Below the pieces are notes generated by a model. That model saw nothing but the letters and a program-made list of their open reading frames with translations. It did not search any database and had not been told where the DNA came from. The translations under genes were made by a program, and so were the position numbers. This document shows, in pieces, positions 6,793-64,000 of a stretch of DNA of 64,000 bases. The first letter of the stretch is position 1; each line of letters opens with the position of its first letter. The stretch is from an uncultured Candidatus Binatia bacterium (GTDB lineage Bacteria > Desulfobacterota > Binatia > UBA9968 > JAJDTQ01): assembly GCA_965242525.1 (NCBI GenBank), contig OZ251459.1, positions 2,537,037-2,601,036 on the forward strand. The letters are read 5' to 3'.

Positions 6793-9700
6793 GACTCTAT
6801 CTCCTCAAACATCAGTTCCCGGAAAACGGGATCGAGGGTTTCGGCAACCCAGGTTTCGCCGGGATGCTGCATGGCGTTCAGCGTGTGGTCGCCGTTGACG
6901 TAGATTAGGTCCAGGGATGAGACGAATCGGTCGCGGTTGCGGTCGAACCAGGCGTCCAGCGCGGCATAGTCCGTCTCGTGGATGTTGCGCCAGAGGATCA
7001 GGCAACGGCGCCCCTCGGCCTCCATGCCTGTGATGGTGAGTATGTCATCGATCCGGCGGCGGGACTCCACACGCAGGCCGATCAGGTAGTTGAAGGTTTC
7101 GGGCAGATCGACCGGGACTTCGCAGCGCACACCGTCGCGCACGACGGAGACGGTGTAGGCGAAGGGGTCCCGGAGCTCGTTGCCCAGCAAGGCGGGGCTG
7201 CCGGAGGTTTCGACGCCGAGGGCGTAGCGCAGCCGGTAGTCCTCTGCCATCTCCGGATTCTTGGCCAGGAGATCTTTCTGGCCGTCCGACAGTGGCGCTA
7301 CTACGAGGCTGTCCATCGTATCTTCGTAGGATTCGAGGCGAACGTACTCGAACAACTGGCTGACGCCGTTGCGCGAGACCGGCTTCCCGTTCTTCCAGTC
7401 CGGCGAATAGACGACCTTCTTCATGCGCGGCAGGATGATCGTGTCGAAGTGGCGACCGATTTCCACGAGCGTGTACCGCTGCTGCCCGCCGTCCTCCCGG
7501 TTGAGGTTGACCACCGCATGGCCGGTGGCGCCGGAGCCGGCGAAGAAGTCGAGAACCCGCGCACCGGCTTCGTCGCCGCCCGAAGCGCGGATACAGTCCT
7601 CCACCAGAGCGACGGATTTCGGAAAATCGAAGGGGTTGTCTCCGAACAGTTCCTTGAGCACCCTGGCTCCGTGGTTGGAGGATGCATACTTGGCGTCCCC
7701 CCACCATGTCTTGGGCGTGGACTCCACGTCCATACGCTGCATGAAGTGGATGCTGATGCCCTCCGTCCCCGGACCGTTGCCGTTTCTTTGCACACGGTAT
7801 TCGCCGGCTTCTTGAGAGACCCGCTCCCAACCGCGCTCCCAGTTCTTCTCGATCTTCGTCCCGTCCTGCTCCTTTACCGGCCAGACGACGGTTTCGTCCT
7901 TGCGCGGCTGCTCCAGGATTCGGTATTCCGAGCTTTGCTCGTCCCATTCCATTTTCGGAATACGCAACGTGTCGTCGTCACTGACGTAGATCGGGTAGTA
8001 CAACTTCGGCCGGTCGGCCCGCCGGTCGTTCGTTCCCGTCCGAAGCAGGTTGCGCCAGGCGTACCGTCCGCTCTCGTCGGAGAGGGGGTATCTCTGCTTC
8101 TCTTTCTCCGTCTTGAGAAGCGGCCCGGGGACGGCTTTCTCGCTACCGTAGAACAAGGCGTATTCGTGGGTCGGCGACAGCTTTCCCACCGACGTCCGGC
8201 CGATCGGCGTCGAGCGAACCGGAGCGACGCCGATTTCCTTGTCGAACACGTCCTGCAACAATGCGCGTAACCGCCAGACCTCTTCGTCGTCGATGGCGCA
8301 ACAGAGAATGCCGTCCTGAACCAGGAGCGCCTTGGCGAGCGGCAAACGGTTCTCCATCAGCGACAACCACGACGAATCCTTGAGGTCGTTCTTGTACAGT
8401 ATCGACGACGATGCGGTGTTGTACGGCGGATCGATGTACACGCACTGCACCTGCCCCCCATACCGCGCCTGCAGCAGGTTCAGCGCCTGGAAGTTCTCTC
8501 CGTGCACCAGCAGGCCATCCGTCTGCTCGTCCAGCGGTCCGGCGTCGGAGAGGGCGGCCAGCAGCCGGTCTGTGAAGTCCCGGTCGAAGTGCCGTGTGTC
8601 CAGCACCAGGAAGGGGTTGGCCTTGAGGAAATCGACGCTCGGGGGGACGCTCCAGGCCGCGTTGCCGTTGGTCAAATCCCCCGCTATCTCGTCCACCGCG
8701 AACAACTCGACCCACTCCTCGCATTGCGCGGCGTTGGCGGCGACCTCCGGGTGCAGCGCTTCCGGCACCCGGTCCAAGGTGACGCACCAGTTGGTTTCCA
8801 ACACCAACTTCTTCTTGAGCCAGAGCCGCTTCTGGAAGTCCTCCAGTTGCGCTAGGAAGTCGATGATCTTCCCGCCCACGTGGCGCATGGCCCGCACCCG
8901 GGCCAAGGCGCGGTCCAGCCGGGGGGCGTCGCCCTGTTCCAGGTCGTCCAGGTTCAGGACCTCGGTGTTCAGATAGAGGTCCAGTTCCTGGCGCAGGAAG
9001 CCGCTCAGGTCCTTGTGGATGAAGTAGTCGAAGCTGTTCTTCGCTGTGTAACGATCGAGGTGTTTCGCGAGCAGGGTGCGCTCGCCGTTGGCGTTGGTCG
9101 GGGCCGGCGCGGTCAGCGCGGCCTGCCAGTCCGGGTCCACCGCGTTCAGGATCCGTTCGACCGTCGCCTCGTTGATGCAACCCTGTTGCGAGACGCCGTT
9201 GCCCGGCCACCGCTTCTTCTCGCCCTCCGTCAGCGGCCGGTGCTCGAAGCGGACGGCCAGTTCCCCGTCCTCGACCGCGGCGGCGCCCTTGCCGCGCGCA
9301 AGCACGAAGCGGCGCTGCCGGCCGTTGGCTTCCTTGACGTTGTCCTTCTCGTTGTCCGCTGCGGCGATCTCGAAGCGCACGCGCCTCGCCGCATCGCCCG
9401 CGCCCACCGTGAAGGCGTAGCTCGCGTAGTTCTCGGTGGTCTTGACGTAGTACTGGTCCGCGTTGGCCCAGTGGAGCTTCACTTCCTCGCCGTCGTAGGG
9501 AACGAGGTAGGCGGACCGGCCGCCGCTCGAATAGCGGCGTTGCGAGACGAAGTCGCCCTCGGTGTAGTAGCGGGCGAAGAAGTTGGCCAGATGGTTGTAA
9601 ACGTCGGCCTCGGCGTCCGCGTCCTTCTTCATCTCGGCGAGCCGCCGGTTCAGCTTGGCGATCTTGGGTGGGGGTTCGGCATTGGGGCTGAGCCCCAGCT

Positions 9701-16304: not shown

Positions 16305-16414
16305 GGCTCTTCCGGCTTTCGAGTGGGCAAGGCAGGCGGGAAAGGGGAGCGACAGGGTTCAGGCCGTCATCTCCGCAGACGCCCACCTCGTCATTCCCGC
16401 GAAAGCGGGAATCC
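16305..16414 (+). repeat. Composite ~110-bp intergenic repeat ending in a 27-bp palindromic REP unit (GTCATTCCCGCGAAAGCGGGAATCC)
   Basis: Near-duplicate of 23917-24053 (ggctcttc.ggctttcg.gtggg.aaggcagg.gggaaagg...). The REP unit is at 16388-16414. Confidence 0.75.
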
Positions 16415-16590
16415 AGTCACATAACCCGCACGCATTCTTGAAGCGCCTCCAAGGGAGGGCCGCCCTCGACAGCGCCTTCCCCAGCATCTCGAAATCCACC
16501 TTGACACCGGACGGGCTTGTTCGATATAGCACCGGGTTCTTATCGTAACACTCGAATGGTTGAGGAGACTCGGAACGGTCCCGGAGGAAG

Positions 16591-16725
16591 GGCGCGTCCT
16601 TCGACTTCGCTTCGCTACGCTCAGGACGAACGGAGGTCCCCGCTTCGCTACCATCGGGACGAACGGGGACGGGAAGGCGCGTGAGGGAATAACCCTCATC
16701 CACGGCTCGATCGTTCAGGGTTTCC
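16591..16725 (-). repeat. MITE-like element, inverted and partly degenerate copy of the family at 56818
   Basis: Contains the reverse complement of the gtcctgagcgtagcgaagcg...tcgaaggacgcgc core plus a TIR-like ggctcgatcgttcagggtttcc end (16704-16725). Confidence 0.55.
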
Positions 16726-19847: not shown

Positions 19848-20015
19848 GGAACCCCTGGACCATCGAGACATCCCGGACGGCTTCCCTCACCCCGACCATC
19901 CCGTTCCCGTTCGTCCTGAGCGTAGCGAAGCGGAGTCCCCCCATTCATCCTGAGCGTAGCGAAGCGGAGTCGAAGGACGCTCTCATGCTCTCTGTCCCGA
20001 TTGTTCAGAGGTTCC
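19848..20015 (+). repeat. MITE-like element (168 bp) with terminal inverted repeats
   Basis: Left end ggaacccctggaccatcgagaca (19848-19870), right end tgtcccgattgttcagaggttcc (19993-20015). The interior carries two tandem gtcctgagcgtagcgaagcggag units. Same family as 56818-56991. Confidence 0.75.
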
Positions 20016-20053: not shown

Positions 20054-23000
20054 CTACCAGCGCCAGCGGGTGTAGAGCGTGAGGCTGTTGGTCCTGCCGC
20101 CGCCGGCCCGTGTCTCGTGTTGGCCTTCCAGGTCCATGGCCATGGCCTTCCCCAACTTCATCCGGCTGCCCAGACGGTAGCCTCGGCGCCCCGGTCCGCT
20201 GATGGACACGCCGCCGTAGGGGGTCAGCAGGCCCGCGCCTTGGTGGGTCACCACTCCATAGCCCACGTCCAGGTCCAGGCGTTGCGCCGATAGCCCCCGC
20301 GCCGCGTCCTCGGGGTCCACGCCGGCCCGCAACCCCGACGCGCCGCGCCACATCTCCTCCAGTCGGCTCCCCTGCGCGCCCCACACCGGCGCCATGGTGA
20401 ACCACAGCCCTCCGCCGAACTCTCCCGGGTCCAGCCGCAGGGTCACGCTCGCGCCCCATTCGTCGAAGGACGACTCCTCGTGGAGCAGCAGGTACCGGCC
20501 CCGGGCCTCGACACTCAAGCCCAACTCCGTGTCCGCGAACTCCAGGCCGCCACCCAACTCCGCGCCCAGGCCCGTCTCCGCATCGCCGCGGTCCCACCGC
20601 CCACCGATCTCCAGGAACGGCGTCACCTGCGAGACCTCCGAGACCGGCCACTCGGTCCGTCCTTCCAGCATCAGCCGCATCCGTTGGGCATCGCCCGAGG
20701 CCTTCGGCAGCCCCTGTGCGGCGCCGACCTCCAGTCCGGTCAGGAAGGCGTCGGCCTTCATCGCCAGGTCGATCTTCCGCCAGGTGAACAACTCCTGCCG
20801 GGCGCCCACCGAGGCCAACAGCATCTCCAGGTCGGAATCCGCCTTCCCGGCCTCGTCCTCCAGGTCGGTATCGCCCCAGCCCGCGCCCAGCAGACCCCAC
20901 ACGCCCAAGCCGGAACGCGGGGTCCAGTGCACGTAGGGCAGCACGCTGGTCAGGCCCACGTCCACCTTGCCCCTGGTCACTCCGGTGGTCTCGTAGTCCA
21001 CGTCGCCCCAGCTTTGGGCCAGCGCCATGCCCAGCAACACGTCCCGGCGCATGCGGTAGTCGAGGCCCACGTAGCCGGTGAACACGTCGCCGTCCATGGT
21101 GAAGCCGTCCACCGGCCGACCGCCGAACCCGTTGGCCGTGCCCCGGCCCCACAACGTCCAGCCCGTGGTCCGGCCGCCCCGGGACTCCCGGTCGCTCAAC
21201 GGCAGCTCGAACCGGCTCCCGGCCAGTATCCCCGCCGCGGACACCTGCCGCCGGCGCCACGTCCGTCCGTCCGTCCCGGCCCACGGGCCGGCCGCGGCAT
21301 CGAAGTCGCGCCAGACCGCGGAAACTCGCATGGCCGCAGGGTCGTCCCACGCGCCGTTGCCTGCCGCGGACGAGTGGACCTCCACGCCCAGGACCCGCGC
21401 CATGCCGAAGACCATGTCCGCGGCGCCGTCGCGCCCCCCGGGGTCCAGCCGCAGCCGCTGCCCGCCCACGACCGCCTGCGCTTCCGAAGGCGCACCCGTG
21501 AACCGCCCGCCGATGACGTCCACCGCGTCCGTCGCCAGCGTGCGGCCCACTCCCGCCAGCACCATGTGCAGCGCCCGATGGCGCGCGCCCTCCGTGTCGT
21601 CGTCCGTGATCGTCACCGTTCCCGAAGCCGCCTGCGGGTCCGGCTCGGCGTTGGTGGCCTCCGTCAGCCGCACCCGGAACGTCTCCGGGGGCTCCACCCG
21701 CAGGTCGTCCAGGGTCTCCACCCGCAACGTCTTCTCCCGGTCGCCCGGCCGGAACGTCAGGCGCCCGTCCGCAGCGCGGTAGTCCTCCCCCGCCTCGGCC
21801 GTACCGTCCTCCGTGGCCCACCTCACCGTCACCAGGACTTCGGAGGGCTCGTCCAGCACCACCCGCAGCTCCGCAACTTCGCCTTCCACCGCGGTAGCGG
21901 CCCCTGCGGCCCCTATGGTCGAGGCCCTCGTGACCGACGCGATGGCCTTGCGGTAGGGCGTGCCGGTAACCTCGGCGTATTCGTCGCCGTGGCCGTTGGC
22001 GAACATGGGGGTGACGCGCACGGTGTACATGACGCCGGGGTCGAGGTCCTCGATGGTGTAGGTGACCCGGTTGGCGTCGGCGTAGGGGGTAGCCCGGACC
22101 GAGGAGATGGAACGCAGGGCGCTGGCGCGGTCGTCTTCGACGGAGATGCAGGTCCGCCCTTCGGGGACGCATCTGTCTTCCCGGTTCGGGTCGCCGCCGT
22201 ACTCCTGTGCGTCGGACCTCCACTCTACGCGGTAACCGGTCGCGTCGGGGACCCTCAGCCACGATACGTCCAGGCTCCCCGCTCCCGGCGTCACGGACGC
22301 GGTGATCTGGTCCAGCGGCGCGCCGGTGGCCTCGGCAGAGGGGGCGCCTTCGTAGAAGATCCCGAAGTCCGGCTTGACCCGCACGGTGTACGCGACGCCG
22401 GGGGTGAGGCCGGGGATCGTGTAGCTCCTCGTGTTCACGCCGCTCACCACGCGGTGCCGGTCCATGCCGGGGACATCGGAGTAGTCCGACGCAGCCCTGT
22501 AGGTCACGGTGTCGCTCCAGTGTTGCGCGCCGGACCTCCACTGCACCTTGTAGCCCTGGGGTTTGGTGCGCGTCTTCGGGTTCTCGGCGTCCGGCAGGGG
22601 GTCCCAGGCGACCGTCAGTTGTCCCGGCCCGGGCGTTACCCTCACGTTCTGCACCTGCCATTGCCGCGCCTGCTCCACGTCTCCTCCCCACACCGTGACG
22701 CCCCTTCCTCGAAGGGTCGCGATATGGCCGGCGGCGTCGGCGTTCAGGGCCGTAAGGTCGTCCAGCGAGACGTAGTCCCCGGAACCCAATCCCGAGTTGA
22801 GGACCAGCGGCGAGATGTCTTCGACGCCGGTCGCGTCGAGATCGAAATAGTAGATGCTGGTCAGGCCGCTCAACGGCGAGATGTCGCGGAGTCCATGGTT
22901 TTCCTGGAGTGTCAGGCGGGTCAGGGACGTCATCCCCCGGAGCGGCTCGATGTTCGTGATCCGGTTGACGTCGAGGGTTAGCCGATCCAGGCCGGTGAGG

Positions 23001-23536
23001 CCGGCGAGGGGGGTAAGGTCCGAGATCCGGTTGTCGTTGAGGTACAGCCGGGTCAGGCCGGTGAGGCCGGCAAGGGGGCTGAGGTCCGAGATCCGGTTCA
23101 CGGTGAGGCGCAGCAGCCTCAGGCTGGTGAGACCGGCGAGGGGGGTGAGGTCCGAGATCCGATAGCTCGCGTGGAGCGCCAGGGTTTGCAGGTTGGTGAG
23201 ACCGGCGATCGGCGCGAGGTTCTGGATGTCGCCATTTTCGATGGTCAGACTCCTCAGGCCTGTGAGGCCGGCGAGGGGGGTGAGGTCCGAGATGGGGTGA
23301 AACTGGATTATCACGCGGGTCAGCCCGGTGGCGTGCTCCAGTCCCGTCAGATCGTGGATGTGGCCGGCCACGTTGAACCGGTCCGAGAAGGGGCGCTCGA
23401 GATACAGGCAGCTAGTGGGGTTCGCAAAGGTGCAGGTCCTCAGCCCCGCCATGTCCGCATGGGTGATGGTCGCTCCGCTGGCCTTGTTCAGCGCCGCCTC
23501 CACCTTCGCCCGCAAGTTGGCGTCGGGGATGTGCAC
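20054..23536 (-). CDS. LRR / 2x FN3 / Calx-beta passenger fused to an autotransporter beta-barrel; true 5' end unresolved (see poly-C tract)
   Basis: About nine 22-residue LRRs (L.GLT.L..L.L..N.ISDL.PLAGL), two FN3-like modules, a Calx-beta module (EGEVAELRVVL...DYRAADGRLTF...TVTITDDD) and a beta-domain ending ...LYTRWRW. The frame stays open upstream of GTG 23536 and encodes a signal peptide (SLRVLLALWAVAAAVSFAAPAHEA) with no in-frame start codon. Confidence 0.8.
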   Translation of the reverse strand: MHIPDANLRAKVEAALNKASGATITHADMAGLRTCTFANPTSCLYLERPFSDRFNVAGHIHDLTGLEHATGLTRVIIQFHPISDLTPLAGLTGLRSLTIENGDIQNLAPIAGLTNLQTLALHASYRISDLTPLAGLTSLRLLRLTVNRISDLSPLAGLTGLTRLYLNDNRISDLTPLAGLTGLDRLTLDVNRITNIEPLRGMTSLTRLTLQENHGLRDISPLSGLTSIYYFDLDATGVEDISPLVLNSGLGSGDYVSLDDLTALNADAAGHIATLRGRGVTVWGGDVEQARQWQVQNVRVTPGPGQLTVAWDPLPDAENPKTRTKPQGYKVQWRSGAQHWSDTVTYRAASDYSDVPGMDRHRVVSGVNTRSYTIPGLTPGVAYTVRVKPDFGIFYEGAPSAEATGAPLDQITASVTPGAGSLDVSWLRVPDATGYRVEWRSDAQEYGGDPNREDRCVPEGRTCISVEDDRASALRSISSVRATPYADANRVTYTIEDLDPGVMYTVRVTPMFANGHGDEYAEVTGTPYRKAIASVTRASTIGAAGAATAVEGEVAELRVVLDEPSEVLVTVRWATEDGTAEAGEDYRAADGRLTFRPGDREKTLRVETLDDLRVEPPETFRVRLTEATNAEPDPQAASGTVTITDDDTEGARHRALHMVLAGVGRTLATDAVDVIGGRFTGAPSEAQAVVGGQRLRLDPGGRDGAADMVFGMARVLGVEVHSSAAGNGAWDDPAAMRVSAVWRDFDAAAGPWAGTDGRTWRRRQVSAAGILAGSRFELPLSDRESRGGRTTGWTLWGRGTANGFGGRPVDGFTMDGDVFTGYVGLDYRMRRDVLLGMALAQSWGDVDYETTGVTRGKVDVGLTSVLPYVHWTPRSGLGVWGLLGAGWGDTDLEDEAGKADSDLEMLLASVGARQELFTWRKIDLAMKADAFLTGLEVGAAQGLPKASGDAQRMRLMLEGRTEWPVSEVSQVTPFLEIGGRWDRGDAETGLGAELGGGLEFADTELGLSVEARGRYLLLHEESSFDEWGASVTLRLDPGEFGGGLWFTMAPVWGAQGSRLEEMWRGASGLRAGVDPEDAARGLSAQRLDLDVGYGVVTHQGAGLLTPYGGVSISGPGRRGYRLGSRMKLGKAMAMDLEGQHETRAGGGRTNSLTLYTRWRW

Positions 23537-23916: not shown

Positions 23917-24053
23917 GGCTCTTCGGGCTTTCGTGTGGGTAAGGCAGGAGGGAAAGGGAAGCGACAGGGACCACGCCGTCACTGCTCCGCAGCCACCTGC
24001 CCCGTCATTCCCGCAGCCGCCCACTCACGTCATTCCCGCGAAAGCGGGAATCC
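23917..24053 (+). repeat. Second copy of the composite repeat ending in the 27-bp REP unit
   Basis: Aligns with 16305-16414. REP unit at 24027-24053, plus a half unit cgtcattcccgc at 24002-24013. Confidence 0.75.
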
Positions 24054-24159
24054 ATCCGGTTTCCTCGCTCTCGTTGCACAAACCGCTCATACATGGCGCC
24101 CACGGGGTTTGCCCGCAGGATCTGGATTCCCGCCCCCGCTTCCGCGAGGACATGCTTTC

Positions 24160-24252
24160 GGAAACTCTGCACAATTCCGGTTTGAACCCTCTCTCCTGTG
24201 GGAAAACGCGTCCTGAGCGTAGCGAAGCGGAGTCGAAGGACGCGCTCATGCT
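24160..24252 (+). repeat. Truncated MITE-family copy (left TIR-like end plus core)
   Basis: ggaaactctgcacaattccgg ... cgtcctgagcgtagcgaagcggagtcgaaggacgcgctcatgct. No right TIR is present. It overlaps the stop codon of the 24246..25187 CDS. Confidence 0.6.
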
Positions 24253-25187
24253 CCCCCGGAAGATCCCCACAGCTCGTCGATGTAGCCGCTGTCGTCGATC
24301 TCTCGCAGGTGGTGCAGGTCCCACATGGCCAGGGGATTGAAGCCGGCCACCTGCGGGTGGCGCTTGACCGCCAGGGCGAAGACGTTCCGTATGGCGTCGA
24401 GGGTGGGGTAGGGCCGGGGCTCCAGGGAAGCGGCCTGGTCTTCGTAGAAGGCGGCAAGCTCTTCGTCCGACTCGTACTTGTCCCCGCAGTGGGTCCTTAT
24501 GATGTCCAGGGTCTCGTCCCGGCGGGTCTTGAAGAAGTGGACGCCGTCGATGAGCGCGCGGATCAGGGAGCGGACCTCCTCGGGGTGGCCGCGGACGTAG
24601 GTGGTGGTGGTGGTGAGGGTCACGCCCTCGATCATGTCCATGGTCGGGAGATCCAGGAGCCTTGCGTCCATGGCCCGTGCCCGCAGCCGGTCCACCGCGC
24701 GCACGAACGTGGCGTCGTATCGTCCCGACAGGACGCCGCGCACCCGCTCCACCGCGTTCTTGGGGCCGGTCACCAACTCCACGTCCCGCCCTTCCTCGAT
24801 CCCGTGGAGCCTCAGGAACAGCCACACGTTGAGTCCGGTGTGGCCGTCGAAGTCGTCCATGGCCACCCGCTTGCCCTTGAGGTCCTGGAGGCCGTGGATG
24901 CCGTCTCCGGCCACCAGGCAGTTCTCGCGCCACCGGTTGTTGGACTGGGCCACGTGGACGAAGGGCTCCCCGTGCAGGGCCCGGCGCACGTAGAGGTTGT
25001 GGTGGTTCCCGGAGACGACGTCGATGTCGCCGGCCCGCAGCCCCTGCATGGCTTTCCCGCGCATGCCCTCCATGGAACCGAAGTCCATGCGGATCCCGTG
25101 CCGCTCCAGGAACCCTCCCTGCTCCATGACCTTCCACAGGGGCACGTGGCTCGACGCCCGGTAGTAGATGCGCATCCTGCTTGCCAT
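24246..25187 (-). CDS. NMT1/THI5-like (NitT/TauT-type) periplasmic-binding-fold protein without obvious signal peptide
   Basis: 313 aa with alternating beta-alpha pattern and blocks (GDIDVVSGNHHN, KGKRVAMDDFDGHTG) resembling NMT1/SsuA-like binding proteins. Lies 24 nt downstream of the bicupin gene. Confidence 0.6.
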   Translation of the reverse strand: MASRMRIYYRASSHVPLWKVMEQGGFLERHGIRMDFGSMEGMRGKAMQGLRAGDIDVVSGNHHNLYVRRALHGEPFVHVAQSNNRWRENCLVAGDGIHGLQDLKGKRVAMDDFDGHTGLNVWLFLRLHGIEEGRDVELVTGPKNAVERVRGVLSGRYDATFVRAVDRLRARAMDARLLDLPTMDMIEGVTLTTTTTYVRGHPEEVRSLIRALIDGVHFFKTRRDETLDIIRTHCGDKYESDEELAAFYEDQAASLEPRPYPTLDAIRNVFALAVKRHPQVAGFNPLAMWDLHHLREIDDSGYIDELWGSSGGA

Positions 25188-57149: not shown

Positions 57150-60100
57150 GTGCGGACCGTAAAGCAGGCTTGCAGACCCCGGCCAAGCGTCTTCGATCCC
57201 ACGCGCCGCGACACGGTGCTCGACCTGACGGACCTGGTGGACGGCCGCATCGACCCGGCCGGATTCTTTGCCGAGAACCACGTCACGGAGGGTATGAGGA
57301 CCCTGCTCACCGAGGGGTTCCGGCGTCTGGAAGGGAAGTCGGCGCAAGGGGTTTTCAAGCTGACCCAGGCCATGGGCGGCGGCAAGACCCACAACCTCCT
57401 GGCGCTTGGGCTCCTGGCAGGGCATCCCGACTTCCGGGCCGAGGTCATGGGCGGTTTCTACACCCCGGACCCTGAACTCGGGCCGGTGCGCGTGGTGGCC
57501 TTTTCCGGGCGCGAGAGCGACGCGCCGCTCGGCATCTGGGGCGCCATCGCGGAGCAGCTCGGCAGGAAGGAGCAGTTCGCCGACTACTACGCGCCTCTGG
57601 CCGCCCCGGGCCAGACCGCCTGGGTGAAGCTGCTCGAGGGCGAGCCGCTCGTCATCATGCTGGACGAGTTGCCGCCCTATTTCCTCAACGCGGCATCCAG
57701 GAGCATCGGCAACTCGGACCTGTCCGCGGTCACCACCACCGCGCTGTCGAACCTCCTGGTCGCGGTCGGACGGGACGAACTGCGCAACGTCTGCCTGGTG
57801 ATCTCCGACCTCAAGGCGACGTACGGCGCGGGGGCCGCGCAGATCGTCGCGGCGCTGGAAGACCTGGAGGCCGAGACCGGCCGCACCGCCATGAACCTGG
57901 AGCCCGTCCGCATGAACACGGACGAGTTCTACCACATCCTCCGCAAGCGCATCTTCGAGGCGCTGCCGGACGAGGCGGAGGTCCATGAGGTGGCGCAGGG
58001 CTACGCCAAGGCGGTGCGCGAAGCGAAGCAGATGGACGTGACGAACGCCTCGCCCGAGCGGTTCGCCGCGCAGGTCGCCGAGTCGTACCCCTTCCATCCG
58101 GCCATCCGCGACCTCTATGGCCGCTTTCGGGAGAACCAGGGTTTCCAGCAGACCCGCGGGCTGATTCGCCTGATGCGGATCGTCGTGTCGCGGATCTGGG
58201 ATACCGGCCATGACCCCCACCTCGTCGCCGCCCACGACGTGGACCTGGAGAGCCGCGAGACCCTCACCGAGATCAACCAGATCAACCCGACCCTCGAGAA
58301 CGCCATCGCCCACGACATCGCGTCGGGCGGCGCCGCCGTGGCCGAGACCATCGACGCCAACCTGGGAGGCGGCGAGGACGCCCGGGACGTCATGCGGCTG
58401 CTCCTGGTCGCTTCGCTGGCGAACGTCCCGAACGCCGTCAAGGGGCTCGCCGTCCCCGAGATCGTCGCCAACCTGTGCGCGCCCGGGCGAGACCTCTCCA
58501 AGCTCCAGAACGAGGTGGTCGCGCGCCTCGCGACCGCGGCCTGGTACCTGCACACGACCAACGACGGGCGTCTGCACCTGCGCAACGTGCAGAACCTCAT
58601 CGCCCGCGTGACCACCACCGCGGGCGCCTACCTCCGCGACCAGGCCACGAAGGAGCTCAAGGAACGGCTGACGGAGATCTTCGATCCGGTCGAGGCCTCC
58701 TGCTACCAGCGCCTGCAACCGCTCCCGGCCGTGGACGAGATCGACGTCCAGCCCGACCGGGTGACGCTGGTGGTGACCGAGCCGCATCCGGCGGGCCTGC
58801 ACCCGGACCTTGCCATCCTGTACGATCAACTCACCTACCGGAACCGCATCTGTTTCCTGACCGGGCAGCGGGCCTTCGGCTCACTGCTGGAACGCGCGCG
58901 GGAGTTGAAGGCCATCAACCAGATCATCGGCGAGATGCAGGAGGAAGGCGTGGCCGATGGCGACCCGCAGATGCAACAAGCTCGGGACCAGCTTATGCCG
59001 CGCTTCCTCGCCCAGTTCCACAGCGCCGTCCGGGAAACTTTCACCACGCTATACTACCCCACCAAGGACCGGCTGGCGAAGGTGGACTTTCTCATGGAGT
59101 TCAAGGAGAACCGCTACGATGGCGAAGAACAGGTGAGGGAGGCGCTCGCGGACCGGCAGAAGTACACCACGGACGTCGCGAGCGAGAACTTTCGCAAGAA
59201 GCTGGAAGCCCGGCTGTTCACCCAGAAGTCCATGTTGTGGACGGAGGTCGTGCGCCGGGCCGCGGCCAACCCCGTGTGGCAGTGGCACCATCCCGACGCC
59301 CTCGACCGGATGAAGCAGGACTGCCTGCACAAGGACCTCTGGCGGGAGGAGGGGAGCTACGTCGACAAGGGACCCTTCCCAAAGCCCACGACCAGCGTGC
59401 GCATCCGGGAGCTGTCCCGCGACGAGGACACCGGAGCGGTGAAGCTGCGGCTCGCTCCCGCCAACGCCGACCGGCTCCATGCAGAGTTCGGCGGCGCGGC
59501 GACCCGGGCTTCGATGGCGGTGGAGGGAGCGGATTTCGAGACCGCGGAGCTTCGCGTTTCCTTCCTCGCAGTGGACTCCGGGGGCGAGCATGACACCGGG
59601 GAGCCAGTGGAGTGGTCGAACCGTATCACATTGAAGTCGCGCGAGTACCCGGACGGCGACCGACGTATGGTCGAGCTCCGCTCGGCTCCGGAAGCGCCCA
59701 TCCGCTACACCACGGACGGCTCCGACCCGAAGGTCAACGGCGGCGCCTATGAAGGGCCGTTCGCGGCGCCGGAGGGCGTCCGCCTGGTGCTCGCGGTCGC
59801 AGAAAAGGATGGAATCGCTTCCGAGGTCCACCGGCGCGACATAGCCGACAGACAGGAGGCCAAGCCCATCGACAAGAGCCGTCCCGCGGTGTGGCGTCCG
59901 TCCGGAGGGTTCTCGTTCCAGGCCACCCGCAGCGCCTACGGCTTCATCAACCGGTTGAAGAAGCACGAAGCCTCCGCGGGCGGACTGCGCTTCGCGGCCC
60001 AGGCCGGCGGGACTTGGGGCGAGGTCATCCTCTCCGACGACGTGGAGTTGGGCGGCGACCGGGTAGAGCAGACGGTCGAGCAACTCAGGGGGCTCGTGCC

Positions 60101-60215
60101 CGACGGCGAAGTCTCCGTCGAGGCGAAGCTCGTGCGCTACGACACGGGCCAGCGTTTCCTGGACTGGGTGGCGGAGACCCGGGCGGAATACGACCGCGAC
60201 GACGTGGAGCCTTGA
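57150..60215 (+). CDS. DUF499-type (BrxC/PglY-like) ATPase, anti-phage-associated
   Basis: 1021 aa. N-terminal ...FFAENHVTEGMRTLL...FKLTQAMGGGKTHNLLALGLL (Walker A) and LVIMLDELPPY (Walker B). GTG start 8 nt after AGGAG. Confidence 0.8.
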   Translation: MRTVKQACRPRPSVFDPTRRDTVLDLTDLVDGRIDPAGFFAENHVTEGMRTLLTEGFRRLEGKSAQGVFKLTQAMGGGKTHNLLALGLLAGHPDFRAEVMGGFYTPDPELGPVRVVAFSGRESDAPLGIWGAIAEQLGRKEQFADYYAPLAAPGQTAWVKLLEGEPLVIMLDELPPYFLNAASRSIGNSDLSAVTTTALSNLLVAVGRDELRNVCLVISDLKATYGAGAAQIVAALEDLEAETGRTAMNLEPVRMNTDEFYHILRKRIFEALPDEAEVHEVAQGYAKAVREAKQMDVTNASPERFAAQVAESYPFHPAIRDLYGRFRENQGFQQTRGLIRLMRIVVSRIWDTGHDPHLVAAHDVDLESRETLTEINQINPTLENAIAHDIASGGAAVAETIDANLGGGEDARDVMRLLLVASLANVPNAVKGLAVPEIVANLCAPGRDLSKLQNEVVARLATAAWYLHTTNDGRLHLRNVQNLIARVTTTAGAYLRDQATKELKERLTEIFDPVEASCYQRLQPLPAVDEIDVQPDRVTLVVTEPHPAGLHPDLAILYDQLTYRNRICFLTGQRAFGSLLERARELKAINQIIGEMQEEGVADGDPQMQQARDQLMPRFLAQFHSAVRETFTTLYYPTKDRLAKVDFLMEFKENRYDGEEQVREALADRQKYTTDVASENFRKKLEARLFTQKSMLWTEVVRRAAANPVWQWHHPDALDRMKQDCLHKDLWREEGSYVDKGPFPKPTTSVRIRELSRDEDTGAVKLRLAPANADRLHAEFGGAATRASMAVEGADFETAELRVSFLAVDSGGEHDTGEPVEWSNRITLKSREYPDGDRRMVELRSAPEAPIRYTTDGSDPKVNGGAYEGPFAAPEGVRLVLAVAEKDGIASEVHRRDIADRQEAKPIDKSRPAVWRPSGGFSFQATRSAYGFINRLKKHEASAGGLRFAAQAGGTWGEVILSDDVELGGDRVEQTVEQLRGLVPDGEVSVEAKLVRYDTGQRFLDWVAETRAEYDRDDVEP

Positions 60216-60217
60216 GC

Positions 60218-60883
60218 GTGGAAACCCGTTCCAAGCCGCTGGGGTTCGGTTTCCGGCCCGAAGAGTCGGAGCACCACTTCGTGGTGACCGTGCCTTCGAG
60301 GAGCCGTGAAGACGTCCTCGTCGCCGAGTACCTGCGCTTCGACCCGGCGACGGGCTACGGGCCTCCCTCGCTCGGAGTCGGCCCCCATGATTCCAGGCTA
60401 CGGGCCGCGCTGCCGCGCGCCAAGTGGGACGCCATCGCCGACGAGGCGCGCGTCGAGTTCAACCGCCGGCTCAAGAAGCAGGGCCTGCCGCCGGGACGCT
60501 GGAAGCGGGGCGACACCCCGGTCGCCCGCCTGCTGGGCAAGGAGCTGACGCTCCTCGCCTGGGCGGTGGAAGACGCCGACCCGGCGCTCATCCCCCCCGC
60601 GCTCAAGAACTGGCTGGGGCTCGCGCCCGAAGAACGGTGGTGGCTGTTCACCATGACCAACGCCGCCACCGGCCACGCCCTGCACGGCAGGAACAAGGGC
60701 TGGCGCAAGGCGGTGCGTTTCGCCCTCACCGAGAACCCGGTGACCGGCGACCGCCAGGAGCGCCAGAGCGACATCTTCCGGCTGGTGGCCGCGGAGGAGC
60801 GTTCGGACCCCCCGCGCCGGGACCGGAGCCGGGAGGACGCCGCGCCGCGCAGGGCGGTTGCGGCGGGCCGCGGCGGGGCGTGA
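60218..60883 (+). CDS. DUF3780-like protein (assignment by context and recollection)
   Basis: GTG start 2 nt after the DUF499 stop. 221 aa beginning ...KPLGFGFRPEESEHHFVVTVP.... The position immediately after a DUF499 gene and before DUF1156 matches the known three-gene association. Confidence 0.5.
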   Translation: METRSKPLGFGFRPEESEHHFVVTVPSRSREDVLVAEYLRFDPATGYGPPSLGVGPHDSRLRAALPRAKWDAIADEARVEFNRRLKKQGLPPGRWKRGDTPVARLLGKELTLLAWAVEDADPALIPPALKNWLGLAPEERWWLFTMTNAATGHALHGRNKGWRKAVRFALTENPVTGDRQERQSDIFRLVAAEERSDPPRRDRSREDAAPRRAVAAGRGGA

Positions 60884-60987: not shown

Positions 60988-61224
60988 ATGGCCAACGTAA
61001 CCGTACGCAACATCGACGACGACGTGATCGCCTCCCTCAAGGCGCAAGCAAAGGCGCACCACCGGTCCCTGGAGGGCGAGATCCGTCATCTCCTGGCAAC
61101 GCACGTTTCGCGGCGAACGCGGATGGCAGGCTTCCGCGACCGCACGGCGCACCTCAGCGCCCAAACCGAAGACCGCCCTCAAACCGATAGCGTCGTTCTC
61201 CTGCGCGAGGACCGGGATCGTTGA
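60988..61224 (+). CDS. Ribbon-helix-helix antitoxin (FitA/VapB-like)
   Basis: MANVTVRNIDDDVIASLKAQAKAHHRSLEGEIRHLL is the typical Arc/FitA-type RHH N-terminus. Its stop overlaps the TTG start of the PIN gene (TTGA). Confidence 0.8.
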   Translation: MANVTVRNIDDDVIASLKAQAKAHHRSLEGEIRHLLATHVSRRTRMAGFRDRTAHLSAQTEDRPQTDSVVLLREDRDR

Positions 61225-62048
61225 AGCTGATCGTTGACGCCAGCATCGCGGTCAAGTGGTTCTTCACGGAATCCCATACGGCCGAGGCCCGACGGCTTCT
61301 GGCGCACCGCATCGTCTTGCATGCCCCCAGCCTCATACTCACGGAGGCGGCCAACGTGATATGGAAGAAGGCGCGGCGCAAGGAAATACCGGACGCGCAG
61401 CCCTACCTTGCCGAGCTTGTCGCTCTTTCGGACGTGGTGACACTGCGTCCGTCCGCGGACCTCATCGTGCCGGCAATGACCATTGCCCTGGCGCTCGACC
61501 ACCCCATCTACGACTGTCTCTATCTCGCGTGCGCCGAAGCCGAAGGCGTGCCGCTCGTTACCGCGGACAAGAAGCTGCGAGAGGCTGCCGCACGCAACTC
61601 CGTGGATGTCTGGTACATCGGTGACGAAGACGCCAACCAGCGCATTGACGCCGCGGCCAACGGCTTGGTCATTCCGGAAGACAAACTCCGAGAGCTGATC
61701 GCAGCCTACGCAAACTTCCGTGACACCGCGGATTCCGTGATAGAAACCGTTCCCCTCCGTGGCCGACGGGTCAGGATATTGAGCAAGGAAGACCGGGACC
61801 GCTACCTCGACACTCCCGCTTATCGCCGCCTGGTCAATCTCCTCACGGAACTCTCTTACGACGAACGCATCGACCTGATGGCCCTCGGGTGGCTGGGTCG
61901 GGGGTCCGGTTCCTGGGCTTCGTTGCTTGAACATGCCTACAAATCGGGAATAAACGATACATACACGAAGCATGTCCACTACGAAGCGGGTCTCGGCTTC
62001 TACTGGCAGAAGGGGATCGACCGGCTACGCAAGGCGCAACCAGCGTGA
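61221..62048 (+). CDS. PIN-domain (VapC-like) toxin fused to a C-terminal DUF3775-like domain
   Basis: The N-terminus LIVDASIAVKWF......YDCLYLACAEAEGVPLVTADKKL has the PIN acidic residues. The C-terminus ...LSYDERIDLMALGWLGRGSGSW...HYEAGLGFYWQKGIDRL resembles the DUF3775 consensus (...LVALMWLGRGD...YLEEGL). Confidence 0.7.
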   Translation: MKLIVDASIAVKWFFTESHTAEARRLLAHRIVLHAPSLILTEAANVIWKKARRKEIPDAQPYLAELVALSDVVTLRPSADLIVPAMTIALALDHPIYDCLYLACAEAEGVPLVTADKKLREAAARNSVDVWYIGDEDANQRIDAAANGLVIPEDKLRELIAAYANFRDTADSVIETVPLRGRRVRILSKEDRDRYLDTPAYRRLVNLLTELSYDERIDLMALGWLGRGSGSWASLLEHAYKSGINDTYTKHVHYEAGLGFYWQKGIDRLRKAQPA

Positions 62049-64000
62049 ACACCTCTCCAACCTTCATCGAAACGCAGTTTCCCGTTTCGCGGCTGTCGAA
62101 GGAAAGCTACAAGGAGCGCAAGGCGAACTACAGCCAGACCCTGACCGGGCTCGGCAAGTGGTGGGGCCGCAAGCCGCTGGTGATGGTGCGGGCGATCATC
62201 CTCGGGCTGCTGATGCCCGCCTCGGACGATCCCCGGAAGGACCGGGACGTGTTCCTTGCGCTCCTGACGATGGACGAGGAAGGGCTGTGGCGGCGGAAGA
62301 ACGGCAACATTCCGCTCAAGGAAGTGTATGGGCGGCTGTCGCCGGAGGAGCGGGCCGAGTGGTTTACCCATGACGCCGAACCTGACCGTCCCCGGCTCCG
62401 GAAGGGCACGAAAGCCGCGGATCGAGCGCGCCTGCAACGCATGGTCTTCGAGCGCATGGGCTATGACGAGAAGCTCAAGTTGTGCGACCGGCCCGAGCAC
62501 CTGGAAGGACCGTCCCCAGACGCCTGGAACGCCATCAACCGGCATCTGGGTACGGAGGCAGCCAGCCTGCCCGAGCTGGTGCGGGAGTTGGGCAAGCGCC
62601 GTTTCGGGCGCGTGCCGCGGGTGGGGGATGCGTTTTGCGGGGGCGGCAGCGTGCCTTTCGAGGCGGCCCGGCTCGGTTGCGAAGCCTATGGCTCCGACCT
62701 GAACCCGGTGGCCGCCCTGCTCACCTGGGGCGCGCTGAACATCGTCGGCGGCGGGGAGGATGTCGCCGAACGGATCCGGGCGGCGCAAACCGAGGTATTC
62801 GAAGCGGTGGACCGCCAAGTCACGGAATGGCGCATCGAGCACGACGAGGCCGGCTGGCGGGCCGACGCCTTCCTCTACTGCACGGAGACCGCCTGCCCCG
62901 AATGCGGCTGGCGCGTGCCGCTCGCGCCGAGCTGGGTCATCGGCGAGAAGACGCGAGCCGTTGCGCGGCTGACGCCCGAGCCCGCGGAAAGGCGCTTCGC
63001 CATCGACGTCCGTTCGGGTGTTGGCCGGGAAGCGCTTGCCGCCGCCCGCAACGCCGGTACCGTGCGGCAGTCGCGGCTGGAATGTCCCAACCCCGCTTGC
63101 AACGCATCCACGCCCATGACCGCCATCCGCGGCGACCGGCGCGGGGACGGCGGACGCGGCCACGGGCTGCGGCAATGGGAGAACGACGACCTCGTGCCTC
63201 GGCCGGACGACGTGTTCCAGGAACGGCTGTACTGCGTGCGCTGGCGCCTCCCGTCCCTCGCCGCGCTGCTGTGGATGGAGCAGCGGTTGCGGGCGGCTGG
63301 CCGGCTTGAAGATGGGGCGGGCGGGAGGCCCGTGCCCCGGACGGGCACGCCGGTCCCGGGACACTTGGATTCCCGCTTGCGCGGGAATGACGGAGGGGGC
63401 GGGATGTCCGTGTTCGACCAGGACATGCCGGGCCCAGAGGGGTTGCGACGGGAGGCTCCGGCGGGCGGGGTGACTGCCGTGCTGGAAGGCGCCCGGCGGA
63501 ACTTTCATGCGGGCGAGACGCCCGCGTTCCCAGGAAGCGACCCTTCGCCAGCCGGCGGGATGCCCGCATTCCCAGGAAGCGAACCTTCGCTAGCCGGCGG
63601 GATCCCCGCGTTCCCAGAGGCGCCTCTCAGCCGTCATTCCCGCGAAAGCGGGAATCCAGAGACGCCCGTGCCCCGGGGGAGCACGCCGATCCCAGGAGCG
63701 TCCGGGATGCCGGATGTTGCACGGCGGGACGCTCATACAGGCGAGATGCCCGCGCTCCGAAGGAGCGCGCCAGTCCCAGGAGGGTTGCGCCGGGATGTTC
63801 GTGCGGAAGGGATGCTCGCGTTTCCGGACGCTTCACCGCCGCCCGTGCCGGAGTGGGTGGACCTCGAATGCGCGATTGCGGCCCTGGTCGAACGACTCGA
63901 AGCCGACGAGCAACGCGAAGTCGCGAAGCTGCGCAAGCGCGACTGGCCGGCCGAAGACCGCGCAGTCGAGGAGGCGCAACGCGAGTTCGAGGCCAAGAAG
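62045..64000 (+). CDS. DUF1156 domain DNA-methylase-like protein, anti-phage-associated; 3' end outside the window
   Basis: This ORF is absent from the track because it has no stop inside the window. Hand translation of frame 2 from GTG 62045 (overlapping the PIN stop as GTGA) gives TFIETQFPVSRLSKESYKERKA...GKWWGRKPLVMVRA... and the SAM motif VGDAFCGGGSVPFEAARLGCEAYGSDLNPVA. The frame stays open to nt 64000. Confidence 0.8.
   Translation, partial: MNTSPTFIETQFPVSRLSKESYKERKANYSQTLTGLGKWWGRKPLVMVRAIILGLLMPASDDPRKDRDVFLALLTMDEEGLWRRKNGNIPLKEVYGRLSPEERAEWFTHDAEPDRPRLRKGTKAADRARLQRMVFERMGYDEKLKLCDRPEHLEGPSPDAWNAINRHLGTEAASLPELVRELGKRRFGRVPRVGDAFCGGGSVPFEAARLGCEAYGSDLNPVAALLTWGALNIVGGGEDVAERIRAAQTEVFEAVDRQVTEWRIEHDEAGWRADAFLYCTETACPECGWRVPLAPSWVIGEKTRAVARLTPEPAERRFAIDVRSGVGREALAAARNAGTVRQSRLECPNPACNASTPMTAIRGDRRGDGGRGHGLRQWENDDLVPRPDDVFQERLYCVRWRLPSLAALLWMEQRLRAAGRLEDGAGGRPVPRTGTPVPGHLDSRLRGNDGGGGMSVFDQDMPGPEGLRREAPAGGVTAVLEGARRNFHAGETPAFPGSDPSPAGGMPAFPGSEPSLAGGIPAFPEAPLSRHSRESGNPETPVPRGSTPIPGASGMPDVARRDAHTGEMPALRRSAPVPGGLRRDVRAEGMLAFPDASPPPVPEWVDLECAIAALVERLEADEQREVAKLRKRDWPAEDRAVEEAQREFEAKK
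63290..63850 (+). repeat. Cluster of REP-like palindromic units and tandem repeats lying in-frame inside the DUF1156 CDS (boundaries approximate)
   Basis: An inverted 27-bp REP unit lies at 63367-63393 and a direct unit at 63631-63657. There are 2.4 x 42-bp tandem repeats at 63521-63619. Several short palindromes occur (gcgggcgagacgcccgc, gcgggatgcccgc, gcggggatccccgc is present as gcgggatccccgc). Confidence 0.7.

Follow-up and report, generated by a model that had tools for sequence, protein, structure and literature searches.

The Rickettsia palindromic elements (RPEs) of Ogata et al. are selfish palindromes that reportedly lie in frame within protein genes, where they are translated while the fold stays undisturbed. 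Within a single genus, they are dispersed among numerous genes, usually as single insertions of 100–150 bp. Short repeats are also carried in frame by the HsdS of EcoR124I/II, in which the copy number of a 12-bp repeat changes the recognised sequence. Here, we describe an arrangement with likenesses to both in a 64,000-nt stretch of contig OZ251459.1 (hereafter the window), from an uncultured Candidatus Binatia bacterium: a gene for an N6-adenine DNA methyltransferase of the DUF1156 type that holds, inside its reading frame, an array of repetitive extragenic palindromes (REPs). We consider it probable that this array is a REP mosaic resembling the bacterial interspersed mosaic elements (BIMEs), lying in a disordered, length-variable loop of the methylase as a tolerated, translated passenger.

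REPs, REP dimers, and REP clusters that lie wholly inside open reading frames (ORFs) of known proteins and are translated have been described by Di Nocera, De Gregorio and Rocco (2013, BMC Genomics 14:522), who argued for a location in flexible linkers or loops and for the purging of inactivating insertions (PMC3733652). CGTC-tagged REPs have an unpaired CGTC tag, an 8- to 9-bp stem that is nearly always A-T-initiated, a 4- to 5-nt loop, and a CCA tail, with an 8-bp stem and a 4-nt loop in the CGTC-1 family; CGTC-1 was equated with Neisseria dRS3 and Rickettsia RPE-6, and CGTC REPs are without a dedicated transposase (PMC3733652). On the host side, the combination of DUF499, DUF3780, and a DUF1156 methyltransferase defines a restriction-modification (RM)-like "Type-2 BREX-related" (bacteriophage exclusion-related) system, formerly Hma, in whose methylase the Rossmann fold harbours a nested target-recognition insert bearing a 4-Cys zinc finger (PMC12839542). 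A limited literature search found no work linking REPs to DUF1156 methylases.

To delimit the insertion site, residues were counted between two anchors, YCVRWR and P[ED]W[VA][DE]L. There are 200 residues between them in the window, compared with 18–24 in the shortest, insert-free homologues, and the distance ranges from 18 to 362 among 120 homologues. This alignment upholds the claim of a first-pass annotation, made from the letters of the DNA, that repeats had been inserted into the gene. Equivalent sequence in homologues, which that annotation had named as the sign that nothing was inserted, was found only in a sub-clade inheriting the same array and not in the family at large. Relative to insert-free homologues, the extra DNA amounts to 528 nt (~176 codons, a multiple of three) at ~63,310–63,840, the exact edges being ambiguous. 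The methylase frame has zero stops from the GTG at 62045 through 63998, the last full codon in the window, and so is stop-free across 63290–63850, as had been read by hand; the other five frames are closed there by 1–3 stops each. After the insert, PVPEWVDLECAIAALVERLEADEQ... is homologous to DUF1156 methylases, with invariant columns P602, W604, L607, A610, and I611, in agreement with the earlier view that ordinary sequence resumes at this point.

Two CGTC-1 REPs, three tandem 42-nt units of a REP of the type associated with RAYTs (REP-associated tyrosine transposases), degenerate copies, and other hairpins make up the mosaic insert (see the table). The 28-nt unit CCGTCATTCCCGCGAAAGCGGGAATCCA is present at ≤1 mismatch in four copies in the window, at 16388(+), 24027(+), 63366–63393(−), and 63631–63658(+), and none were expected by chance in 100 dinucleotide shuffles; the sharing of this unit between two distant positions and the methylase gene, where it occurs twice, had been noticed in the first reading and holds. 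Its architecture is CGTC-ATTCCCGC-GAAA-GCGGGAAT-CCA. The unpaired CGTC tag directly precedes the stem in 4/4 copies, the 8-bp stem ATTCCCGC / GCGGGAAT has A-T at positions 1 and 2, the loop is the 4-nt GAAA (TTGC on the + strand at 63366–63393), and the 3′ tail is CCA (GGGAAT-CCA), again in 4/4 copies. With all four defining features found, the 28-nt unit is by all appearances a CGTC-1 REP. The two copies in the insert form a head-to-head inverted pair, 237 nt apart and 96% complementary. Read off the sequence, the CGTC-1 REP is stop-free in five of six frames, and it alone among the insert modules recurs elsewhere in the window. An inverted doublet of it also lies between genes in L004, one of the related loci described below. 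A tblastn search of the 64-kb window gave no RAYT homologue.

The tandem repeats and hairpins reported in the first-pass annotation were likewise recovered. Tandem-repeat finding returned a 42-nt period at 63512–63617 (2.5 copies, 89% matches, zero indels). A strict 42-nt period across the entire insert was ruled out by autocorrelation, the tandem being regular only at 63509–63618. RNA of the 561-nt insert region, in which several short hairpins were found, folds better than all 100 of its shuffles (z = −4.24), with z = +2.0 for the adjoining 561 nt of coding DNA. At the protein level, the insert consists of 17% G, 17% P, 11% A, and 10% R, with zero W, C, Y, or K. An intein or self-splicing intron was rejected as a candidate: scanning the whole window at gathering thresholds returned zero Rfam families, and the peptide is of low complexity (G/P/A/R), without Cys or Trp and without a Pfam domain.

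Features of the array, its host operon, and the intergenic REP copies in the window
Feature	Position	Strand	Remarks
CGTC-1 REP, intergenic	16388..16415	+	91 nt past the stop of a major facilitator superfamily (MFS) transporter gene
CGTC-1 REP, intergenic	24027..24054	+	Upstream of the minus-strand LRR/fn3/Calx-beta gene
DUF499 AAA+ ATPase with Fn3-like domains, methylase partner	57150..60215	+	PADLOC DUF499, 1.2e-212
DUF3780 protein, "Type-2 BR" subtype marker	60218..60883	+	1.7e-50; PMC12839542
DUF1156-type N6-adenine DNA methyltransferase, 5′ 651 codons	62045..64000	+	GTG start; runs past the window end
In-frame insert as translated, residues 424–606	63314..63862	+	Gly/Pro/Ala/Arg-rich, no predicted secondary structure
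Imperfect short hairpin unit CGGGAGGCCCGTGCCC / GGGCACGCCGGTCCCG	63322..63358	.	Encodes PVPRTGTPVPG; kin to 63659–63701 and 63743–63785 (43-nt family, 3 copies)
CGTC-1 REP, inverted	63366..63393	-	1 mismatch; read as HLDSRLRGNDG; orthologous to the first REP of L001, L002, and L004
Hairpin GGGGGCGGGATGTCC / GGACATGCCGGGCCC	63395..63435	.	
Three tandem 42-nt units headed by RAYT-type REP GCGGGCGAGACGCCCGCGTTCCCAGG (63509, 63551, 63593)	63509..63618	+	Read as ETPAFPGSDPSPAG / GMPAFPGSEPSLAG / GIPAFPEAP
CGTC-1 REP, direct	63631..63658	+	0 mismatches; read as SRHSRESGNP
Hairpin unit GAGACGCCCGTGCCCCGGGGGAGCACGCCGATCCCAGGAG	63659..63701	.	Read as TPVPRGSTPIPGA; reference copy of the 43-nt family
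Degenerate RAYT-type REPs (63737–63761 at 76%, 63803–63827 at 72%) and a 43-nt unit copy (63743–63785)	63737..63828	+	
Hairpin CGCGCTCC/GGAGCGCG	63751-63769		Within the degenerate-copy stretch 63737..63828
GSTPIPGASGMPDVAR			Peptide stretch of the predicted insert translation

The second REP class in the array, type B, is GCGGGCGAGACGCCCGCGTTCCCAGG, which stands at the head of each tandem 42-nt copy. Its exact 26-mer (Y allowed at one position) occurs in at least 120 metagenome contigs, sometimes as close inverted pairs. In L140, a contig unrelated to the window, CCTGGGAGCGCGGGCGTCTCGCCCGC lies at 68–96 and 762–789, on both sides of a RAYT (Y1 / IS200-like, PF01797) homologue at 708–208, in a classical REPtron arrangement. 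On the hairpin-first strand, the unit begins CCTGGGAGC/CCTGGGAAC; since the GTAG tag is absent, we filed it as a RAYT-associated untagged REP, outside the GTAG families. Type-B units are always in + orientation in the arrays.

Sequence of the window is present in sponge and marine metagenomes (runs X1–X13), runs X1–X4 being from sponge-associated samples. In four of these runs, contig depth over bins holding both repeat types is 20–200x that of the rest of the gene, and that of the type-B unit is 60–90x; the loose ends at repeat edges have many different continuations in the same runs. Because of the raised depth and the many different flanks, both REP units are high-copy dispersed elements, and with the copies at 16388 and 24027 lying between genes, the earlier description of the repeats as intergenic in type was correct. 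The joints at repeats were not taken as alleles of the methylase gene, since the repeats are dispersed. Such abundance, with many alternative joints in the very metagenomes that hold the window, is what could lead an assembler to mis-join repeats into the gene. We nonetheless judge an assembly artefact highly improbable, as an independent Logan contig matches 63367–63503 exactly, L173 and P0001 from other assemblies have the same unit order at 89–92% identity, and three complete chromosomes among metagenome-assembled genomes (MAGs) have an orthologue of the first REP. As a side observation, contig depth at 63407–63473 is below that of the rest of the gene in 4/4 runs, with the flanking repeats far above it, a sign that this segment may not be the same in all gene copies or strains that occur together.

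We then compared the window at the DNA level with eight loci (L001–L008) from species-representative genomes. Their source genomes are soil MAGs with the labels Gammaproteobacteria, Binatia, and Vicinamibacterales, and their proteins are 75–91% identical to that of the window, 91% being the top value among genome contigs. Because proteins this similar occur in those MAG groups, the methylase gene moves horizontally, which, with the window sequence itself in sponge and marine metagenomes, implies recent transfer across phyla and habitats. The site measures 600 nt in the window and 747, 432, 324, 414, 207, 132, 72, and 72 nt in the eight loci, all multiples of three. The 72-nt sites of L007 and L008 (24 residues) are insert-free, the insert of L001 is 225 aa, and related arrays in close relatives span 132–747 nt. 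ORFs of the eight loci are full length (1292, 1187, 1149, 1181, 1111, 1082, 1062, and 1067 aa, respectively), ORF length follows site length exactly, and FCGGGS, DPPY, and the C-terminal ...AGAVENDHV are retained in 8/8.

These data bear directly on the alternative raised in the first-pass annotation, namely that the insertion is inactivating and the window gene a pseudogene with a frame left open by chance in GC-rich DNA. For the window alone, chance is a non-negligible explanation: a first-order Markov model of the insert gives a probability of 0.11 for a single 561-nt frame to be free of stops, and hence ~0.11 x 1/3 for an open in-phase insert, and the CGTC-1 REP itself closes only one frame in six. 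The downstream two fifths of the gene also lie outside view, and truncated relatives exist. It is the comparative data that remove this doubt. None of the eight related loci departs from the frame or falls short of full length, and were frame neutral, finding at least seven distinct in-phase lengths among intact genes would have a probability of ~(1/3)^7 = 5e-4; of the truncated records, those that were traceable (L052 and L173) are contigs at 11x and 3x coverage. The window lineage also shows purifying selection to either side of the insert. The pairwise ratio of nonsynonymous to synonymous substitution rates (dN/dS, omega) is 0.11–0.27 over the 400 codons before the site and 0.16–0.36 after it, insert-bearing pairs included. 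Arithmetic on the pairwise distances gives dN ~0.015–0.017, dS ~0.16, and omega ~0.1 for the branch of the window itself. The 49 codons past the insert in the window have a ratio of nonsynonymous to synonymous differences per site (pN/pS) of 0.19–0.30, with differences mostly in third positions (e.g., 3/3/14 by codon position), and because of this purifying pattern, we conclude that the downstream part is still read in the methylase frame. With flanks at omega 0.1–0.3 around an intact frame, we regard inactivation as distinctly improbable.

The same loci record how the array was remodelled. The first 146 nt of the window site, first REP included, have counterparts of 86–87% identity in the same place in L001, L002, and L004, and because of this orthologous alignment, the first REP predates the divergence of these three loci and the window. 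Among same-strand module matches between arrays, 32/33 share the reading frame, including all ungapped ones, and the lone exception is gapped. L002 and L004 differ by one 18-nt gap, and internal periods of 198 nt in L002, 180 nt in L004, and 96 nt in L003 mark segmental duplications. In L173, a close relative (89–92% DNA identity, same unit order), there are four 42-nt units versus three in the window. Change in the arrays is thus by whole units that keep the frame. Separately, the C-terminal half of the methylases is itself mosaic (alignment A1, columns ~780–900; L001–L006), dS for the same gene pairs being ~0.24 ahead of the site but ~0.54 beyond it; alternative cassettes begin after RGWTHWHHLF, ~190 residues past the insert, which hints that cassettes have been exchanged within the recognition or core region. 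The array was considered as the recombination junction between conserved N-terminal and mosaic C-terminal halves, a candidate rejected because similarity stays high for ~190 residues past the insert.

Colonisation of this loop has been repeated. The CGTC-1 REP is found inverted, and read as LDSRLRGND, in the window, L001–L004, P0001, P0003, and P0007; direct, and read as RHSRESGNP, in the window, P0001, P0002, and L173; and as a doublet in P0004, where it is read as SFPRKRES beside MDSRFRGNDG. Three combinations of orientation and frame are thus seen among homologues. An unrelated repeat, read as GARASSPR...AGWKPALPGKA, occupies the site in a sub-lineage (P0026, P0031, P0039, and P0061), and in P0030 and P0048 this repeat flanks a complete RAYT gene that lies in frame at the loop. 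At 7255–8175 of L052, the contig of P0048, the DUF1156 loop contains the RAYT as an in-frame fusion, together with the REPs that border it (GGGAGCGCGGGCTTCCAGCCCGC; a doublet on the right-hand side). P0014 and P0015 have tandem 24-residue duplications that take in native flank, and in some homologues the site is deleted along with 40–100 residues of the next helices. Given such varied repeats, duplications, and deletions, the loop is a permissive zone rather than the specific target of one element. Of the helical region after the site, we note in passing that 40–100 residues are missing in P0081, P0083, P0088, P0102, P0107, P0112, and P0119, as well as in P0052, P0074, P0076, P0098, and P0100; this region, too, is dispensable or variable.

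Whether the inserted peptide is itself under constraint was approached through base composition and substitution patterns. GC at the first, second, and third codon positions (GC1/GC2/GC3) is 0.77/0.66/0.73 in the insert, compared with 0.70/0.51/0.855 in the gene and 0.70/0.44/0.90 in DUF499. In the orthologous 84 nt of the insert, differences by codon position are 5/3/5, 5/4/3, and 4/4/4, and pN/pS is 0.63–0.93 in this small sample. Since there is no gene-like GC3 and substitutions are evenly spread, the insert peptide is essentially unconstrained beyond frame and absence of stops. The structure of the window's 651 residues was modelled with AlphaFold2 together with 87 aligned homologues, giving a global predicted local distance difference test score (pLDDT) of 61 and a predicted template modelling score (pTM) of 0.39. 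Locally, a helix at 405–423 (pLDDT 81–87) is followed by coil throughout 426–594 (pLDDT 32–43) and then by helices at 607–650 (pLDDT 89–95); in the model of full-length P0011, a 45-aa insert is likewise disordered, with a helix on one side and a long helical region on the other. The insert is accordingly predicted to be fully disordered. A sequence search of the PDB with a full-length homologue returned zero matches, so there is no solved structure in which to place the loop. The site lies past the 4-Cys finger and before motif IV, which by the published architecture puts it either within the nested recognition insert or at its margin.

Of the proposal in the first-pass annotation that the repeats had been domesticated as a disordered insertion, one part stands: the insert is in frame and tolerated, is predicted to be disordered, and would from its sequence be translated. 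A gained function finds no support in the GC3 of 0.73 versus 0.855 or in the pN/pS. We did weigh co-option, in which the array would serve as a length-tunable linker in the target-recognition region, altering specificity or assembly, or in which its RNA or DNA hairpins would modulate transcription, mRNA stability, or distal translation. Retention of the array in intact genes of several lineages and phyla would fit such a role, as would its position within the region from motif I to motif IV, described as a nested target-recognition domain (TRD), the differing unit copy number between close relatives, and the unusually stable RNA fold. Homologues that are insert-free or have short inserts are, however, the majority and equally conserved; the insert is without codon-position constraint; other lineages have different, unrelated repeat families at the site, and some delete it and the next helices entirely; and scanning 62000–64000 for promoters and terminators gave none. 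On balance, we find co-option rather unlikely. Unlikely, too, is the bolder version in which mobile REPs were recruited as in-frame, copy-number-variable spacers in the nested TRD, with array length tuning or switching recognition or assembly, and in which the defence gene also seeds REP families, even a RAYT, into new genomes.

A tolerated passenger therefore remains our preferred account, and the following course of events would explain it. The loop would act as a neutral, "intergenic-like" landing zone in which a first REP settles, after which more REPs and duplications would pile up, as happens in BIME clusters outside genes. When in-phase units recombine unequally, length shifts by multiples of three, so once the first units were in phase, the frame would be kept automatically. 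Selection for a working, self-protecting methylase of an RM-like system would purge out-of-frame or stop-bearing variants, and the array would be translated as a floppy linker, tolerated rather than serving as a functional domain.

Several points weigh against this account. The window ends 150 nt past the insert, and its gene is visible only to 64000; exact-protein look-ups with the antitoxin of the window and with P0001 returned no record, and an exact 39-mer from the window end was absent from the metagenome contigs. The case for a nearly neutral insert draws on just 84 aligned nt per pair. Global confidence of the AlphaFold2 models is low (pTM 0.39–0.43), and the "surface loop" stands on local pLDDT and length variability. 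Nine relatives with large inserts in the protein database are C-terminally truncated, and the L052 locus is visibly decayed, its DUF499 being down to 327 aa. We attribute the truncations to low-coverage long-read contigs, although some lineages may really be decaying; they were not counted as decay because the traced records have 11x (L052) and 3x (L173) coverage and are much broken, and because insert-free homologues are truncated equally often.

The host gene belongs to a family with >6500 homologues of the window methylase. Pfam DUF1156 matches its residues 11–70 (3.3e-21), and the PADLOC profile DUF1156_MTase matches residues 3–401 (4e-124). Motif I is DAFCGGGS, with the FCGGGS core, and the 4-Cys Zn finger is CPECGW...CPNPAC; DPPY and the family C-terminus, kept in all eight related loci, fall past 64000. 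Enzymes of this type are characterised by motif I (FxGxG), a nested TRD with the 4-Cys finger, DPPY as catalytic motif IV, and a C-terminal HTH triad. A DUF499 ATPase with FnIII-like domains, a standalone DUF3780, and an N6-methyltransferase with N-terminal DUF1156 are all present, and by this gene content, the operon is a putative DUF499-centred, BREX-related (Hma-like) Type 2 defence system. The helicase-nuclease expected as effector, an HKD helicase, was not found upstream, where 50–57 kb holds subtilases and a YhcG nuclease; the downstream side is outside the window. Between the DUF3780 and methylase genes, at 60988–62048 and within the defence operon, lie genes for a FitA-like ribbon-helix-helix antitoxin (78 aa) and a PIN-DUF3775 fusion toxin (275 aa), with a 4-nt overlap.

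Other repeats were observed elsewhere in the window. A 65-nt element, in copies that are 88% identical and match no Rfam family, lies at 16305–16369 and 23917–23981, and because it precedes both intergenic CGTC-1 REPs, each of these is part of a larger composite repeat. A third dispersed family, TCCTGAGCGTAGCGAAGCGGAGTCGAAGGACGC, is intergenic, tandem and inverted, at 16583–16670 (−), 19907–19990, and 24209–24254. Finally, tandem repeats spaced by 66 nt (a 132-nt family, 4 copies) lie at 22897–23295 within a minus-strand gene at 20054–23536 for a eukaryote-like repeat protein (leucine-rich repeat [LRR] / fn3 / Calx-beta / autotransporter-like).

Collectively, the locus indicates that extragenic palindromes can build an array of 0.5–0.75 kb within a defence operon, in one of its essential parts, and leave the operon unbroken. 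Conditions that would enable this are a disordered, length-variable landing loop, in-phase duplication, and strong selection on a self-protecting methylase. For annotation, LDSRLRGNDG, RHSRESGNP, and GETPALPG in large proteins flag translated REPs, not real domains. The near-identical methylases also offer a natural series of insert lengths, from 0 to 225 residues, usable for gauging the linker tolerance of a nested TRD. The in-frame RAYT at the loop, along with the spread of the gene across phyla, raises the idea that defence islands ferry REP families between genomes.

Set against known systems, the array resembles the HsdS of EcoR124I/II in having in-frame units in the recognition part of a methylase-associated protein, with copy number varying between relatives. 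It differs in that its units derive from mobile elements and in that a functional consequence is known only for HsdS. With the RPEs it shares in-frame, translated palindromic repeats in a protein-coding gene, but here these form a multi-unit array, concentrated at a single hot spot and moving with its gene from phylum to phylum. Like BIMEs, clusters of REP doublets (REPINs), and REPtrons, it combines REPs in both orientations with short linking motifs, type B flanks a RAYT in L140, and a RAYT with flanking REPs lies at the methylase loop site of L052. BIMEs and REPINs are, however, extragenic by definition, and here the 64-kb window has no RAYT and the type-B REP no GTAG tag. Closest are the intragenic REPs of Di Nocera et al., which have the same CGTC-1 structure as the window REP (PMC3733652). 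Their REP-encoded stretches reach at most 43–82 aa, compared with ~176 aa here and 225 aa in L001, and their host is a DNA-repair gene rather than a defence methylase (PMC3733652); the window array, moreover, mixes a CGTC REP with a RAYT-associated REP, in a loop recolonised across lineages and once by a whole RAYT gene. In-frame intragenic REPs are already known, and what this locus adds is an unusually large example, composed of two REP classes, at a recurrent hot spot in a BREX-related defence methylase.

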